Shown: one piece after another, positions 58,539-64,000 of the stretch
Layout: each line of letters opens with the position of its first letter
Position numbering within the stretch: position 1 is the stretch's first letter
Program-made: the position numbers and the translations under genes
The notes under the pieces: model-generated
Told to the model about the DNA's origin: nothing
Databases searched by the model: none
Seen by the model: the letters and a program-made list of their open reading frames with translations, nothing else
DNA from: an uncultured Clostridiaceae bacterium
GTDB taxonomy: Bacteria; Bacillota; Clostridia; TANB77; CAG-465
Length of the DNA: 64,000 nt
Direction: 5' to 3'
Assembly (NCBI GenBank): GCA_947381905.1
Contig: CANCXL010000001.1
Span: forward strand, 41,970 to 105,969

Positions 58539-59900
58539 ATGAAAAAAATTTCTAAAGCCGAGTATATCGCTTTAAGAAAACGTGGTGAAAGCTACATGTT
58601 AGAGCCTGTTCATGATGAAAGACTAAAAGAACAGTTAGCTTTGACAGGAGAAAAGCTTTTTAACTTCTTACAACAACCTTTAGAGGACATTCGTCAGTGG
58701 CAACTAAAAAGAATAAGTTACCTTGTTGATTATGCTTTTGAAAACATTCCACTTTATAGGAATAAATATTCTAAAGTAGGATATGTAAAAGGAAGTATTA
58801 AAACATGGGATGATTTCTATAAGTTACCATATCTTAGAAAAGAGGAGCTGATTGAAGGTTTTCCGGGGGAAATTGTTAAAGATGTTGATGACTTTGTGCT
58901 TTCAACACGTAGTTCTGGATCAAGCGGTAAGTTTGTAACTATTGCAGTCTCAGAAGAGGCAATATATAAAGATACGTTACAAACAGTACGTCAGTTTAAC
59001 ATGCAGTCTGGGCAAAAGTATATGCCAGAAGATACCATTTTGTATATTTATACTTGCCCTTGGTGGGTAGATAATATCGGTGGTAACTATAAGCAAGACT
59101 ATTTGCCAACCACAACCAGAGTTGATGTAGCAATTAATCATATTAAAGCTACAAGACCTAGATACATCTCAACTTATCCAACTTATCTTGAAAAAATTGC
59201 ATCGACTGGTGTGAAACTTTCAGATTATGGAGTTGAGCTTGTAATTGTGCATTCTGAACAATCAGATGCAAAACAACGTAAGATGCTTGCAGAAGCACTT
59301 AATGTAGAAGTTCTTGATGAGTACAGCAGTGAAGAACTTACAAGAATTGCATTAGAGTGTCCAAAACACCATTACCATTTGGAGGAAGATGCCTGTTTCA
59401 TTGAGATTATAGATGAAAATGGTAATAGAGTTCCAGATGGAGAAATCGGACTTGTAGTTGGAACTAATCTTCTAAATACTGCAACTCCAATCATTCGCTA
59501 TATTCAAGGCGATCTTGCTAAAATCACCAAAGACCAAAAATGTGATTGTAGCAACAATGGAAGAATCATCGAAGGGGTTAAAGGCCGTAATATGGATTCA
59601 ATTATTACTGATACTGGTGAATGCATTCCTGCGTCATGCTTTATGGATATTGCATATAACTGGTTTTTAGTATATGAGATTCCAGTCCATGGTCTTAAGT
59701 ATCAATTTGTCCAAACTGAGATTGGAATGCTTGATCTTTATATAATTGAGGGTGAGTATTCTTTAGATTTGGATGTGGTAAAGAAAGCAATATATACTTT
59801 AGTACCAAAATCTACAAAAGTAGCTGTTCATAAAGTGGATAAGTTGCCTTATGATAATGGCACAAAGTATAGACCTGTTATTAGCTTAGTTAGGAGGTAA
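58539..59900 (+). CDS. PaaK-like adenylate-forming enzyme (phenylacetate-CoA ligase / F390-synthetase family)
   Basis: ATG after AAAGGAGGAG. Adenylation P-loop STRSSGSSGKFVT and overall PaaK-like layout. Confidence 0.65.
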   Translation: MKKISKAEYIALRKRGESYMLEPVHDERLKEQLALTGEKLFNFLQQPLEDIRQWQLKRISYLVDYAFENIPLYRNKYSKVGYVKGSIKTWDDFYKLPYLRKEELIEGFPGEIVKDVDDFVLSTRSSGSSGKFVTIAVSEEAIYKDTLQTVRQFNMQSGQKYMPEDTILYIYTCPWWVDNIGGNYKQDYLPTTTRVDVAINHIKATRPRYISTYPTYLEKIASTGVKLSDYGVELVIVHSEQSDAKQRKMLAEALNVEVLDEYSSEELTRIALECPKHHYHLEEDACFIEIIDENGNRVPDGEIGLVVGTNLLNTATPIIRYIQGDLAKITKDQKCDCSNNGRIIEGVKGRNMDSIITDTGECIPASCFMDIAYNWFLVYEIPVHGLKYQFVQTEIGMLDLYIIEGEYSLDLDVVKKAIYTLVPKSTKVAVHKVDKLPYDNGTKYRPVISLVRR

Positions 59901-59905
59901 GCAAT

Positions 59906-61129
59906 ATGAGTCATTTGTTTGAAGCTAAAAAGGAGATTAATCGCAAAGCTTTTGAGAAAGCTTCTACACTTGTGGAAGAAAAGATTAAGAGCTTAAGAGC
60001 TAATACTCCGAATTTGCCTTATGAAAAGACAAAACTTGCTGAAGTAGAAATCAATAAATTTTTCTATGAAGGCAAAACTGTAGACAGAGTTATGATTGTT
60101 TTAAGATCTAATGGGTGTCAGCACTATAAGACAAATGGAGGTTGCTCCATGTGCGCTCATTTAAATGGGGCGCCACTTATGGAAAAGATAACCCATGAAA
60201 ACTATGTTATGCAGTGGAATTCTGTCATAGACGGAAGTTTCAACGAGAGTGCAACCACGAAATTTAATCTTAATGATTATCCAGTGGTTTGCGTATACAA
60301 CTTAGGTAGTTTGTTAAATCCTGAAGAGATTTCTTTTGATACTGTAAAGTATATCTTTGCTTCTCTTAATCAATACAAGGGTGTAAAGAAAGTTATCATT
60401 GAGTCTCGAGCAGAGTATGTAACAGAAGATGCGCTTTCTGCAATAAGAGAAGTGTATGATGGTATTGTCGAAGTTGGAATTGGTGTAGAGTCTACAGACT
60501 ATTTAGTAAGAGAACTATGCCATCATAAAGCAATAGACGATACTAAAATTATCACTGATGCAGTAGAAATGCTTCATAGGTTTAATATGAAAGCACTTGC
60601 CTATGTTAATTTTAAGCCAGTGTTTCTTACCGAATCAGAAGCAATAGATGATGCTATTAAAACATCTGTAGATTGTTTTAGTAAGTTCCATTTTGATGCT
60701 GTTTCTGTTGAGCCTACTTCTCTTCAAGAAAACTCACTTGCAAACTTTATGTATGATCTTGGATTATACAGGGTACCTTGGCTTTGGAGCCTTAGGGACA
60801 TCATTCATGGAATATATGATGGAACAGGAACTAAAAAGTTAGATATTCGCCTTGGCGGGTATTTTGATGAAGAAGTCTTAAGCGGATCGCAGGGAACTGG
60901 CTTTGCAGACAGAAATGAGATTTTTCCTCATATGACCTCAAGTAATTGCAGTCATTGTACTAATGAGTTTGTTGATGCTATTAAGCAATTTAACATGACA
61001 TATGATGTTAAGGATTTAGATAAAGTTAAACCTTGTCCTCATTGTTATAGTTTGTGGGAAGATACAAAAAAGATTTGTGATTCAAGAAGCATTATGAAAC
61101 GAATTAACGATATTCTTGGAAGGATGTGA
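59906..61129 (+). CDS. Cys-rich putative Fe-S (radical-SAM-like?) enzyme with non-canonical Cx8Cx2C motif and C-terminal CxxC...CxxC zinc ribbon
   Basis: GCQHYKTNGGCSMC near the N-terminus. C-terminal NCSHCT...PCPHCY. RBS TAGGAGG. Family assignment uncertain. Confidence 0.4.
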   Translation: MSHLFEAKKEINRKAFEKASTLVEEKIKSLRANTPNLPYEKTKLAEVEINKFFYEGKTVDRVMIVLRSNGCQHYKTNGGCSMCAHLNGAPLMEKITHENYVMQWNSVIDGSFNESATTKFNLNDYPVVCVYNLGSLLNPEEISFDTVKYIFASLNQYKGVKKVIIESRAEYVTEDALSAIREVYDGIVEVGIGVESTDYLVRELCHHKAIDDTKIITDAVEMLHRFNMKALAYVNFKPVFLTESEAIDDAIKTSVDCFSKFHFDAVSVEPTSLQENSLANFMYDLGLYRVPWLWSLRDIIHGIYDGTGTKKLDIRLGGYFDEEVLSGSQGTGFADRNEIFPHMTSSNCSHCTNEFVDAIKQFNMTYDVKDLDKVKPCPHCYSLWEDTKKICDSRSIMKRINDILGRM

Positions 61130-61137
61130 GACTTTCT

Positions 61138-62235: not shown

Positions 62236-63481
62236 TCATAAAGAAAAACTTACTATGTCTGAGTACTTTGACATCGGACTTGAAAGACATGCACTTCTTA
62301 TGGATGCTTCTAACCTTGATTGGTTTACGTTTCCTCTTTTTTCTTGTATAAGAAAAGAGATTTACAGGACCTTAGAAGATCCTGCAGAAGACATGGACTG
62401 GGGATATTCGTATCCTGGAGGAAAGAATAAGTTAAGAGAGCTTATTGCAGAGCATGAAAGTGTTATTGAAGGTGAGAAAATCAGTCCTGATGAAGTTATC
62501 GTCGGAGGTAATGGAACTACTGGTACTCTTAATTTTATAGCGCAAATCATTGCAAGAGAGTATAATTTTGCACAAGATATTGAGTTTATTTATCCAGTGC
62601 CTGCTTATGCGGGACTCATGAAGAGCCTGACTTTTTATGGGATTGTACCTAATATAGTGCTTATGGATAAATCAAATGATTACAAAATGACACTTGCAGA
62701 TGTGCAGAAAGCTTATACAGATAAAACAGTAGCGCTCTTAATTACAAATCCGGCAAACCCAGCGTGTAAGTTTATTGACCAAGACGAGCTTGAAAAAATA
62801 TTCGAGTTTTGCATTAAGAAAAATATTTATATTATCTATGATGCAATCTTTGAAGAATCACCAATGTTTAACAATAAACATGTGCAAGTATTTAAACTTG
62901 CTAATGATTATCCAAAGCTTATTAAGATTAAGGGCTTTAGCAAAGATATCCCTCAGCTTAGTGATCTTCGTTGTGGATGGACTATTTGCAAAGATCCCAA
63001 ATTTATAAATTGGCTTTTGGAGCTTGGAGAGGCAGTAAACTATTCTAATTCTACATTTCTTGAAGCTTTAGGCATTGTTGAAATGACACAAAGGGTAAAT
63101 GTGGATAAAGGAGATAAATCTCCTGAAACTTTAGAATACATTGCAGAAAAAGAAAAGTATCATGGTCAGATTCATACTCTTTTTAATGGTGCGTATGAAT
63201 ATTTATCTTCTCAAAATGATGTGGTAGAAAATGTAGTATATCCTGATGCAGGAAATATAATGTATATCACGTTAAATAAAGAGGCGTGCCAGAAAAAGGG
63301 AGTTTACACATCGCATGAACTTTTTGTGTATATTCTTGAAAAAGAGAATATATTGGTTACTCCAGGTCACGTGTTTGGTCTTCCACTTGAGGATTTAGGA
63401 TTTAGAGTGACAATTTCAAGAGGATACGAACAGTTTATGGACGGATTAAGGCGCATTGTTGAGTTGTTTAAGGAGGTATAA
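62228..63481 (+). CDS. class I/II PLP-dependent aminotransferase
   Basis: ITNPANP and GFSKD...LRCGW Lys motif. ATG sits 7 nt after GGAGGT. Confidence 0.7.
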   Translation: MSNHKEKLTMSEYFDIGLERHALLMDASNLDWFTFPLFSCIRKEIYRTLEDPAEDMDWGYSYPGGKNKLRELIAEHESVIEGEKISPDEVIVGGNGTTGTLNFIAQIIAREYNFAQDIEFIYPVPAYAGLMKSLTFYGIVPNIVLMDKSNDYKMTLADVQKAYTDKTVALLITNPANPACKFIDQDELEKIFEFCIKKNIYIIYDAIFEESPMFNNKHVQVFKLANDYPKLIKIKGFSKDIPQLSDLRCGWTICKDPKFINWLLELGEAVNYSNSTFLEALGIVEMTQRVNVDKGDKSPETLEYIAEKEKYHGQIHTLFNGAYEYLSSQNDVVENVVYPDAGNIMYITLNKEACQKKGVYTSHELFVYILEKENILVTPGHVFGLPLEDLGFRVTISRGYEQFMDGLRRIVELFKEV

Positions 63482-63482
63482 A

Positions 63483-64000
63483 GATGAGAAATACATTTCT
63501 TGAACTTGAAGATAAGCCAATGCATCCTTGTGATTTTTGCTATATTGGAATTTGCTATTGTAGTGCGGATTATCTTTTGGGTGTACAAAAAGCAGCAGAT
63601 AAAGTACGCGCATTATCTTATAGATATGCAAATGCTGATGGAAGCAGTTTACCTCTTAAGGTTTATGGACCAGATGAGGGATACATTTTAAAAGATGTGA
63701 TAGCTTATGATGGCGGAAATATATGTGCGTCTAGTATTGAAGAACTTGAAGAAAAGTTTTCAAAACTTGAGCTTCAATCTGGATGCATCCCAGTATTTGT
63801 TGGCGGAGATCATAGTGTTACGTATGAGTGCGTTAAAAGAATTTCAAGGGAAAATGACGAAATTGTAGTAGTGCAGTTTGATGCTCATAGTGATTTTATT
63901 GACGAGTATGAAGATTATCCTCATGGTTCTGTAATGTGTGAGACAGCTAAGTTAAAACAAGTATCTAAAATCATACATTTTGGAATAAGGGGGAATCTTA
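63483..64000 (+). CDS. ureohydrolase (arginase/agmatinase/formiminoglutamase family), 5' part; continues beyond window
   Basis: RBS AAGGAGGT. Metal-binding motifs GGDHSVT and QFDAHSD. Confidence 0.7.

Follow-up and report, generated by a model that had tools for sequence, protein, structure and literature searches.

What do the genes at the end of this 64,000-nucleotide (nt) stretch of DNA from an uncultured Clostridiaceae bacterium, hereafter the window, make, and on what does their product act? Between positions 58539 and 64000, the + strand carries five co-directional, tightly packed genes, the last of which is cut by the window end. An earlier note, written from the sequence letters, had described this layout, assigned the five genes to PaaK-like, Fe-S, ThrC-like, aminotransferase and ureohydrolase families, and predicted that the cluster continues past the window. 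All three statements were confirmed. Profile and PDB searches upheld the family assignments, and a metagenome contig (L001), which overlaps the window by 14,095 bases and agrees with it at all but 5 of them (14,090), added an ABC-F gene and a decarboxylase gene. The contig thus reveals seven genes (genes 1 to 7), encoding in order a ligase, a radical S-adenosylmethionine (rSAM) enzyme, a ThrC-like enzyme, an aminotransferase, a ureohydrolase, an ABC-F ATPase and an SbnH/BtrK-like decarboxylase. We class the locus as a biosynthetic gene cluster with a resistance-type gene, for which we found no characterised homologous pathway. With roughly even confidence, we explain it as an orphan, horizontally spread cluster for a small amino-acid-derived amide targeting translation, equipped with ABC-F immunity and a new cis-regulatory RNA.

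Because promoter and terminator coincide with the boundaries of a GC-rich island, we regard the seven genes as a single operon of about 9 kb. The promoter-like site lies 129 nt upstream of gene 1, and both of its hexamers are kept in related species. Each of genes 1 to 7 has its own Shine-Dalgarno sequence, the gaps between them range from -8 to 72 nt, and motif inspection found the catalytic motifs intact in all seven proteins. The island genes have a GC content of 0.323-0.365 and a third-position GC content (GC3) of 0.22-0.27, against 0.281±0.031 and 0.148±0.044 for 52 host open reading frames (ORFs) (Mann-Whitney, p = 2e-5 for GC and 7e-7 for GC3), so that the higher GC noticed earlier by eye holds on computation. 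Both GC boundaries are sharp, and GC drops to host level directly after gene 7.

A scan of one genome per species gave 24 loci and a metagenome scan 49 more; neighbouring ORFs were clustered and the loci dereplicated to 49. The full seven-gene set was found in identical order in 14 species-level metagenome-assembled genomes (MAGs) of uncultured Clostridia from human, rabbit, sheep and deer guts, with protein identities to the window of 53%-88%. In a Bacilli MAG (L026), all seven genes are present but arranged differently, and a Woesearchaeota MAG (L028) keeps the six enzymes, also rearranged, without the ABC-F. The orthologs are therefore not dispersed, as the earlier note had allowed for, but co-occur, in the same order in 14 genomes and shuffled in these two. 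Across the 49 dereplicated loci, the rSAM gene is accompanied by the ligase in 44, the ThrC-like gene in 31, the ABC-F in 30, the ureohydrolase in 25, the aminotransferase in 21 and the decarboxylase in 20; the loci without a ligase beside the rSAM gene (5/49) are mostly contig ends. The operon is thereby supported as a co-inherited functional unit.

The loci differ in what surrounds the ligase and rSAM genes. Type A comprises ligase, rSAM, ThrC-like enzyme, aminotransferase, ureohydrolase, ABC-F and decarboxylase. In type B, the ligase and rSAM are joined by a variant rSAM, an ATP-grasp ligase, an ArgE/DapE-type deacylase, a GNAT protein and an ABC-F; in some members there is also a SPASM rSAM or a MATE exporter, or the ligase is duplicated. 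Type C starts with a DRG-like GTPase, followed by ligase, rSAM, ThrC-like enzyme, optional ureohydrolase, aminotransferase and decarboxylase, and then a C39-like peptidase. Sporadic tailoring genes encode a Ddl-like ligase, a KamA-type aminomutase, a C45 acyltransferase, a DDAH/arginine-deiminase (ADI)-like enzyme, a HAD hydrolase and a B12-rSAM. Since a constant core is combined with variable tailoring and protection/export genes, we consider these loci a natural-product gene-cluster family rather than a primary pathway. Searches of NCBIfam, Pfam and PDB sequences yielded no known pathway with such a gene order and only sub-threshold, family-level matches for the six enzymes, which lie far under the NCBIfam equivalog cutoffs; this agrees with the earlier view that the genes form no recognisable primary-metabolism operon. 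No description of the cluster was found in the literature, and no database source names the exact window proteins; their relatives are called "hypothetical protein" or bear the automatic labels "TIGR01210 family" and "archaeosine synthase beta-subunit".

Two aspects of the locus go beyond the earlier note, namely a link to the ribosome (ABC-F or DRG-like GTPase) and a structured leader RNA. As to the first, gene 6 scores 465 bits against NF000355 ("ribosomal protection-like ABC-F"; cutoff 380) and has two ABC domains, with two Walker A and two LSGG motifs. It belongs to none of the named antibiotic resistance (ARE) ABC-F subfamilies searched (Vga, Lsa, Msr, Sal, OptrA, PoxtA and the producer type), scoring at most 349 bits against cutoffs of at least 680. 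Where 6 kb or more of sequence flanks each side (27 dereplicated loci), an ABC-F or a TGS-domain DRG/Rbg-like GTPase is found within 8 kb of the core in 25. In the ABC-F tree, the cluster-linked proteins of types A and B form sister clades, apart from the adjacent host ABC-F. The GTPase occurs where the ABC-F is missing, in type-C loci, of which only L028 is taxonomically labelled (Woesearchaeota); it carries a TGS domain and is closest to Rbg1/Rbg2, the DRG "ribosome-interacting GTPases". In L028, its gene overlaps the ligase start codon, whereas in L055 it stands at the opposite cluster end, and we therefore consider that it moves with the cluster. Because the operon nearly always travels with a ribosome-binding protection-type protein, the product most likely acts on protein synthesis. 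Producer immunity against a translation-targeting product is the simplest reading of this link.

The divergent DRG/Rbg-like GTPase was seen within the operon at 7718-8638 of L028 and also in L055, L057, L059, L060, L062 and L066. Its N-terminal ~90 residues give weak matches to the linker and second nucleotide-binding domain of ABC-F proteins (E 5e-5), which may reflect just the P-loop.

ABC-F genes inside antibiotic clusters serve self-resistance or signalling (PMC8546547, PMC6723617). Almost all archaea lack ABC-Fs, and those ABC-Fs that confer resistance have evolved time and again from other lineages of the family (PMC6723617). The operon resembles ABC-F-bearing antibiotic clusters such as that of lincomycin (LmrC) in that the ABC-F is co-transcribed and co-inherited with biosynthetic enzymes. 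OleB, VarM, CarA and SrmB are further ABC-Fs in antibiotic gene clusters. However, the known clusters are actinomycete and make macrolides, lincosamides and streptogramins, to which the chemistry of the operon is unrelated. The present hosts are instead uncultured gut Clostridia and DPANN-type archaea, the ABC-F lies outside the named resistance classes, and in some ligase/rSAM clusters the DRG-like GTPase replaces it.

The chemistry of the product has to be read from the enzymes, beginning with the ligase and the rSAM protein. Gene 1 has PaaK (4r1l) as its best PDB match (E 6e-23) and contains the P-loop SSGSSG, but its best NCBIfam scores are about 105 bits, far under the cutoffs, it has no Pfam match, and only superfamily membership holds. 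It is not an equivalog of phenylacetate-coenzyme A (CoA) ligase PaaK (103-105 bits against cutoffs of 646-700), and there are no paa genes nearby. The natural-product PaaK-like ligases NatL2, AjiA1 and BagE/FevW belong to the same adenylate-forming subfamily; these ligases form esters or amides directly, without CoA. They are nevertheless distant from gene 1 (30-35 bits). As its closest relatives are phenylacetate-CoA ligases at 85 bits, gene 1 matches no characterised ortholog.

Whether the Cys-rich gene 2 product is a radical SAM protein had been left open; it belongs to the TIGR01210/RaSEA superfamily of such enzymes. Its only match is TIGR01210 (RaSEA), where it scores 188.8 bits and so falls short of the cutoff (212.15). 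When 1.84 billion representatives were searched exhaustively, it fell into a tight, isolated subfamily, whose members score 428 bits while the other ~650 TIGR01210-like representatives reach at most 181 bits and 38% identity. Subfamily members as far apart as those of Clostridia, Woesearchaeota and Microgenomates of the candidate phyla radiation (CPR) are still at least 48% identical, which argues for strong constraint and inter-domain transfer. The Cx8Cx2C triad (C71, C80, C83), earlier thought unusual, turned out to be the family norm: its cysteines are invariant in 100/100 distant relatives, with x8 as the most frequent spacing. Conservation across the same 100 relatives is 92-97% for the C-terminal CxxC...CxxC site (C348/351/377/380), whereas only the subfamily has the loop at about residues 321-341 (GGYFDEEVLSGSQG...NEIFPH).

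The best structural neighbour of gene 2 is queuine lyase (PDB 6p78), an rSAM enzyme that cleaves C-N bonds. Both RaSEA and queuine lyase cleave C-N bonds adjoining 7-deazaguanine; to be active, RaSEA has to form a complex with ArcS, which attaches the lysine beforehand. Gene 2 shares with the ArcS-RaSEA system of archaeal tRNA archaeosine synthesis the superfamily, the CxnCx2C triad, the C-terminal four-Cys site and the pairing of the rSAM with an enzyme that first attaches an amino acid. The partner differs, being the TGT-like ArcS in archaea and an ATP-dependent PaaK-like ligase here. No TGT-like gene (the ArcS/ArcTGT partner) occurs in the 49 neighbourhoods, and 44/49 have the PaaK-like ligase instead. 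The gene 2 subfamily further departs from RaSEA in its specific insertion, its mostly bacterial hosts and its context of small-molecule enzymes. If the pair in the operon works analogously, the ligase may couple an amino acid that bears an amine to a carboxylate, and the C-N linkage so formed may be what the rSAM enzyme processes.

The remaining enzymes also fall short of known functions. Gene 3 matches PALP (116 bits) and has the motif NPTGSFKDRG around the lysine that binds pyridoxal phosphate (PLP). The N-terminal zinc-ribbon-like segment pointed out earlier does exist, although it is a CxxC...HxH module, kept in 30/30 cluster-linked homologs. Tested as a threonine synthase, gene 3 gave 106 bits for the best ThrC model (cutoff 421) and 60 for TIGR00260 (cutoff 167); it is predicted to be a ThrC-fold enzyme but not ThrC. 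Gene 4 is a class I/II aminotransferase with GntC, an arginine-modifying enzyme, as its best NCBIfam match (108 bits), followed by generic aminotransferases (88 bits), VioD (51 bits) and 3-methylarginine aminotransferase (50 bits). The margins over the generic models are too small for a substrate to be derived from these matches.

Gene 5 retains the metal-ligand motifs GGDH, DAHSD and DTD, and its window fragment matches Pfam Arginase with 75 bits. In equivalog tests it reached 116 bits against the agmatinase cutoff of 174, and lower scores for arginase and HutG. An arginase-fold protein with all metal ligands in a biosynthetic operon recalls the logic of proclavaminate amidinohydrolase (PAH) and aminopropylagmatine ureohydrolase, in which a guanidino group is a masked amine; gene 5 resembles PAH by family and logic only, however (58 bits to PAH 1gq6). 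Gene 7 is a LysA-fold PLP decarboxylase whose best solved relatives are SbnH of staphyloferrin B synthesis (6knh/6kni; E 3e-51) and BtrK of butirosin synthesis (E 7e-40). It is neither diaminopimelate decarboxylase LysA (213 bits, cutoff 298) nor of the carboxy(nor)spermidine type (nspC model, 32 bits). SbnH and BtrK both remove the carboxylate from an amino acid that an amide or thioester bond has already tied to the remainder of the molecule. The two systems differ from the present one in their NIS (siderophore) synthetases, carrier protein and aminoglycoside genes, which are absent from the gene 7 cluster.

The enzyme set and the guanidino-directed enzymes of variant clusters point to a small, basic amide derived from amino acids as a possible product. 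The earlier proposal of a modified amino acid or a guanidino/polyamine-derived product agrees with this enzyme set and with the variant tailoring genes, and keeps the standing of a proposal. Most probably, the product is a small, polar, nitrogen-rich amide built from amino acids and acting on the ribosome. We infer product and target, and each pathway step from family chemistry, as follows. The ThrC-like PLP enzyme and the aminotransferase would make or remodel a non-proteinogenic amino or diamino acid. The PaaK-like ligase would adenylate a carboxylate and join it to an amine, and the RaSEA-like rSAM enzyme would carry out radical C-N bond chemistry on the ligase adduct, perhaps in complex with the ligase as RaSEA is with ArcS. 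The SbnH/BtrK-like decarboxylase may strip the alpha-carboxylate of the already conjugated amino acid to leave a terminal amine, while the ureohydrolase may unmask an amine from a guanidino or amidino group. The co-transcribed ABC-F would protect the ribosomes of the producer, and the leader RNA would regulate the operon.

This leader, 129 nt between the -10 box and gene 1, is conserved to an extent that exceeds coding DNA. RNAalifold predicted a stem P1 (58416-58422/58491-58497, GAUUAUC/GAUAGUC) that encloses P2 (58433-58437/58453-58457, CCGC/GCGG), with the conserved 15-nt loop CUUUUUAAUGAUUUUA, and P3 (58465-58483), the hairpin GUGUAAUUACAC. A conserved tail (58498-58515) and then the Shine-Dalgarno sequence (58523-58532) make up the 3' part. 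Covariation statistics over 15 species gave 88.3% of leader cells paired, against 78.8±1.3% in shuffles (0/500) and 27-47% in slid controls, and double compensatory changes at 14 of 19 pairs, against 8.2±1.7 in shuffles (0/500). The folding z-score of the window leader is -2.9. A covariance model, whose matches include five loci left out of model building, found one copy per type-A locus searched, always upstream of gene 1, except in L019, which has none. It had no match elsewhere in the window, in L026, or in type B/C loci.

A known riboswitch was discarded, as no Rfam family matched: the 4227 covariance models of Rfam 15 gave no + strand match at E<=1 over 13 kb, and on the leader alone only chance-level matches (E 1.4-4.5). 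A leader peptide was rejected as well, as there is no conserved reading frame and indels break the frame across species; a tiny ORF that overlaps P3 (AUG-NNN-GUG-UAA) is missing from about half of the species, and we therefore treat it as a by-product of the stem. No terminator was found within the leader, which makes translation control or factor binding likelier than transcription attenuation. From its conserved sequence and covariation-supported fold, we propose that the leader may be a new kind of riboswitch or cis-regulatory element, one confined to the type-A clade of Clostridia.

Table 1. Features of the operon and its borders (extrapolated positions beyond 64000 are L001 positions plus 49905)
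Feature	Position	Strand	Remarks
Intrinsic terminator of the upstream glyoxalase-like gene	58304-58329	+	11-bp stem then T-run (L001 8399-8424); upstream boundary
Promoter-like site	58381-58409	+	TTGACT, 17-nt spacer, TATAAT; 11/12 match, best in 10 kb
Structured 5' leader RNA	58410-58538	+	folding, covariation, covariance model
Gene 1, PaaK/F390-synthetase-like adenylate-forming ligase	58539-59900	+	453 amino acids (aa)
Gene 2, radical SAM enzyme of the RaSEA/TIGR01210 superfamily	59906-61129	+	407 aa
Gene 3, ThrC-like PLP enzyme	61138-62235	+	365 aa
Gene 4, fold-type-I aminotransferase	62228-63481	+	417 aa
Gene 5, arginase/agmatinase-family ureohydrolase	63484-64000 (cut)	+	full length 294 aa; extrapolated end 64368
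Gene 6, ABC-F ATPase	extrapolated 64392-66068		558 aa; L001 14487-16163
Gene 7, SbnH/BtrK-like PLP decarboxylase	extrapolated 66141-67352		403 aa; L001 16236-17447
Closing intrinsic terminator	extrapolated 67374-67402		12-bp stem; L001 17469-17497; GC island ends there

The starts of genes 3, 4 and 5 in Table 1 rest on cross-species conservation and Shine-Dalgarno positions, and they revise the earlier note in three places. Gene 3 had been given a GTG (61126) overlapped by the gene 2 stop; the conserved start is the ATG at 61138, 8 nt past that stop. The start of gene 4 moves from 62213 to 62228, which places it behind a GGAGG Shine-Dalgarno motif and leaves 8 nt shared with the end of gene 3. 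Gene 5, thought to begin at 63483, one nt from the gene 4 stop at 63481, begins at 63484, two bases past it. For gene 1, an in-frame GTG extension at 58467 is interrupted by frame-breaking indels and is not conserved, and we therefore keep 58539 as its start.

Two neighbouring genes were considered as cluster members and rejected. The glyoxalase-like, bleomycin-resistance-like gene upstream (57860-58285) shares the GC content of the host, ends in a terminator of its own and does not adjoin the operon in L014 and L017-L019. Downstream, L001 carries a second, OptrA-like ABC-F of 631 aa (17560-19455, extrapolated 67465-69360; 673 bits against a cutoff of 1450), which has host GC, lies past the terminator and falls into a separate clade of the tree. 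An OptrA-like ABC-F with host GC directly follows the island in most species of the clade, so the island sits beside a resident ABC-F gene. PADLOC anti-phage defence models gave only generic ATPase similarity for the ABC-F and no match for the six enzymes.

Several variant loci have particulars of their own. In L047 (6143-9987), which has ample flanks, an ORF of the DUF6271 family stands directly upstream of the rSAM gene, in the usual place of the ligase; proteins of this family recur beside the core and are also found upstream of the ligase in L026 and L023. In L029 (7224-9964) and also in L020, L042 and L052, of the Clostridium sp. CAG:440 type, the PaaK-like ligase is a tandem duplicate, with paralogs 79% identical and preceded by an rSAM/SPASM gene; a dipeptidase gene between GNAT and ABC-F is split into two ORFs in these clusters and is probably a pseudogene. 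An IS5-family transposase lies within the type-C cluster of L060 (13233-14078), between the ureohydrolase and the C39-like peptidase. In L018 (2734-3978), of a sheep-gut lineage, a second cluster-type aminotransferase is found about 6 kb upstream of the operon, beside a glyoxalase-like gene.

The GC shift, the rSAM identity of at least 48% across bacterial phyla and archaea, and the isolated, tight rSAM subfamily argue for horizontal acquisition, which had been raised earlier as a possibility. As part of the explanation that we favour, the operon most likely entered an ancestor of the low-GC gut Clostridia clade by horizontal transfer. The window has a second, mildly GC-rich patch at 12295-14970 (GC 0.31-0.375, one ORF with GC3 0.365), whose three ORFs (318, 320 and 191 aa) have no Pfam match. 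In a related genome without the island nearby (L083, 10001-12916), a glyoxalase-like gene is followed by EF-P and an ABC-F of 553 aa.

Several points weigh against a horizontally spread cluster for a translation inhibitor. The interdomain linker of gene 6 is short, ~80 aa, with no extended resistance domain, and its sequence is equidistant from housekeeping (YbiT, Uup, EttA) and resistance (PoxtA, VmlR) ABC-Fs; because of this equidistance, we treat its resistance role as a candidate only. The ABC-F tree has a single outgroup lineage. Type A lacks an exporter as well as a regulator protein of its own, and the GNAT and deacylase of type B can be a biosynthetic protect/deprotect pair rather than immunity. 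Within the Clostridia clade, the operon diverges at about the rate of the flanking host genes, usually at the same site, and a stable physiological pathway would look like this too. Further, the empty-site comparison found the island in 2 relatives and the flanking gene in unrelated contexts in 2.

One alternative is that the operon makes an endogenous physiological metabolite (an unusual polyamine, diamine-amide or cofactor-like compound) used by the cell itself, with the ABC-F or GTPase as a cooperating or compensating translation factor. The decarboxylase, ureohydrolase and aminotransferase do follow polyamine-pathway logic, a riboswitch-like leader is typical of metabolic operons, and the missing type-A exporter, the stable vertical inheritance at one locus in the clade and the likeness of gene 6 to housekeeping as much as to resistance ABC-Fs would all fit. 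However, such a metabolite would not lead us to expect the patchy distribution across phyla and domains at such high rSAM identity, the foreign GC signature, or tailoring genes that vary strongly between variants and include a MATE exporter and a GNAT; nor is gene 7 of the carboxy(nor)spermidine type. We regard this alternative as unlikely, though still a serious contender.

The link to ribosome-binding nucleoside triphosphatases (NTPases), near-universal and including a TGS-domain GTPase, could also mean that the cluster modifies a macromolecule of the translation apparatus (tRNA, rRNA, ribosomal protein or factor), the ligase attaching a group, the rSAM trimming it, and the NTPase being the target or delivery factor. 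The RaSEA superfamily membership of the rSAM, its structural proximity to queuine lyase, the action of both enzymes on 7-deazaguanine derivatives, and the complex of RaSEA with a lysine-adding enzyme point in this direction. But RNA-binding modules such as TGT/ArcS, PUA or THUMP are absent from the clusters, genes for 7-deazaguanine synthesis do not occur near them, and the rSAM is under the RaSEA cutoff in a well-separated subfamily (428 bits, then at most 181). Four small-molecule enzymes and variable tailoring genes are, moreover, hard to fit to one fixed modification, and we consider this alternative improbable.

Still less probable, to a degree that we would call it very doubtful, is a ribosomally synthesized and post-translationally modified peptide (RiPP), with the rSAM as maturase, the arginase as a peptide-arginine-to-ornithine enzyme and the C39-like peptidase as leader protease. 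Peptide arginases do occur in RiPP pathways, type-C clusters carry a standalone C39-like peptidase, and some type-B loci have extra SPASM-type rSAMs. Yet type A has no room for a precursor gene (gaps of at most 72 nt and a 129-nt leader without a conserved frame), type-C operons are equally compact, and the gene 2 rSAM is not of the SPASM/twitch maturase type. Finally, a chance grouping of ordinary primary-metabolism genes (threonine, lysine, arginine, polyamine), with GC set by amino-acid content or expression, which family names such as threonine synthase, DAP decarboxylase, agmatinase and aminotransferase might bring to mind, is effectively refuted by the joint movement of the gene set across phyla and a domain boundary and by an excess in GC3 rather than in GC1+2 alone (p = 7e-7), and it is also opposed by scores that are all far under equivalog cutoffs and by the shared promoter, leader and terminator.

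We therefore return to a translation-directed amide protected against by its producer, and ask how far it reaches. Tentatively, and with more doubt than confidence, the ligase/RaSEA-like pair might mark an unrecognised, widely transferred cluster family that makes a new class of translation inhibitors and brings with it a new ABC-F lineage, a GTPase protection factor and a riboswitch. Its hosts would be gut Clostridia, other Bacillota, CPR bacteria and DPANN archaea. The archaea, being poor in ABC-Fs, would use the dedicated DRG-like GTPase for ribosome protection, and the riboswitch of the Clostridia clade would sense the product or a precursor.

Whatever the product, the ligase/RaSEA-like pair is a bacterial small-molecule setting for studying radical C-N chemistry of the RaSEA kind, which is still poorly understood. 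There is good support for the leader as a candidate new cis-regulatory RNA, and its ligand could tell us about the chemistry of the pathway. The putative archaeal clusters, in which a DRG-like GTPase takes the place of the ABC-F, provide a testable hypothesis for a function of DRG-type GTPases. If our explanation is true, the cluster would be a natural reservoir of a new ABC-F ribosome-protection lineage, of a kind that is a clinical resistance problem when mobile. Common uncultured gut Clostridia of humans and livestock would then be able to make a new small molecule that interferes with protein synthesis, which would bear on competition in the microbiome and on the search for new antibiotic scaffolds.

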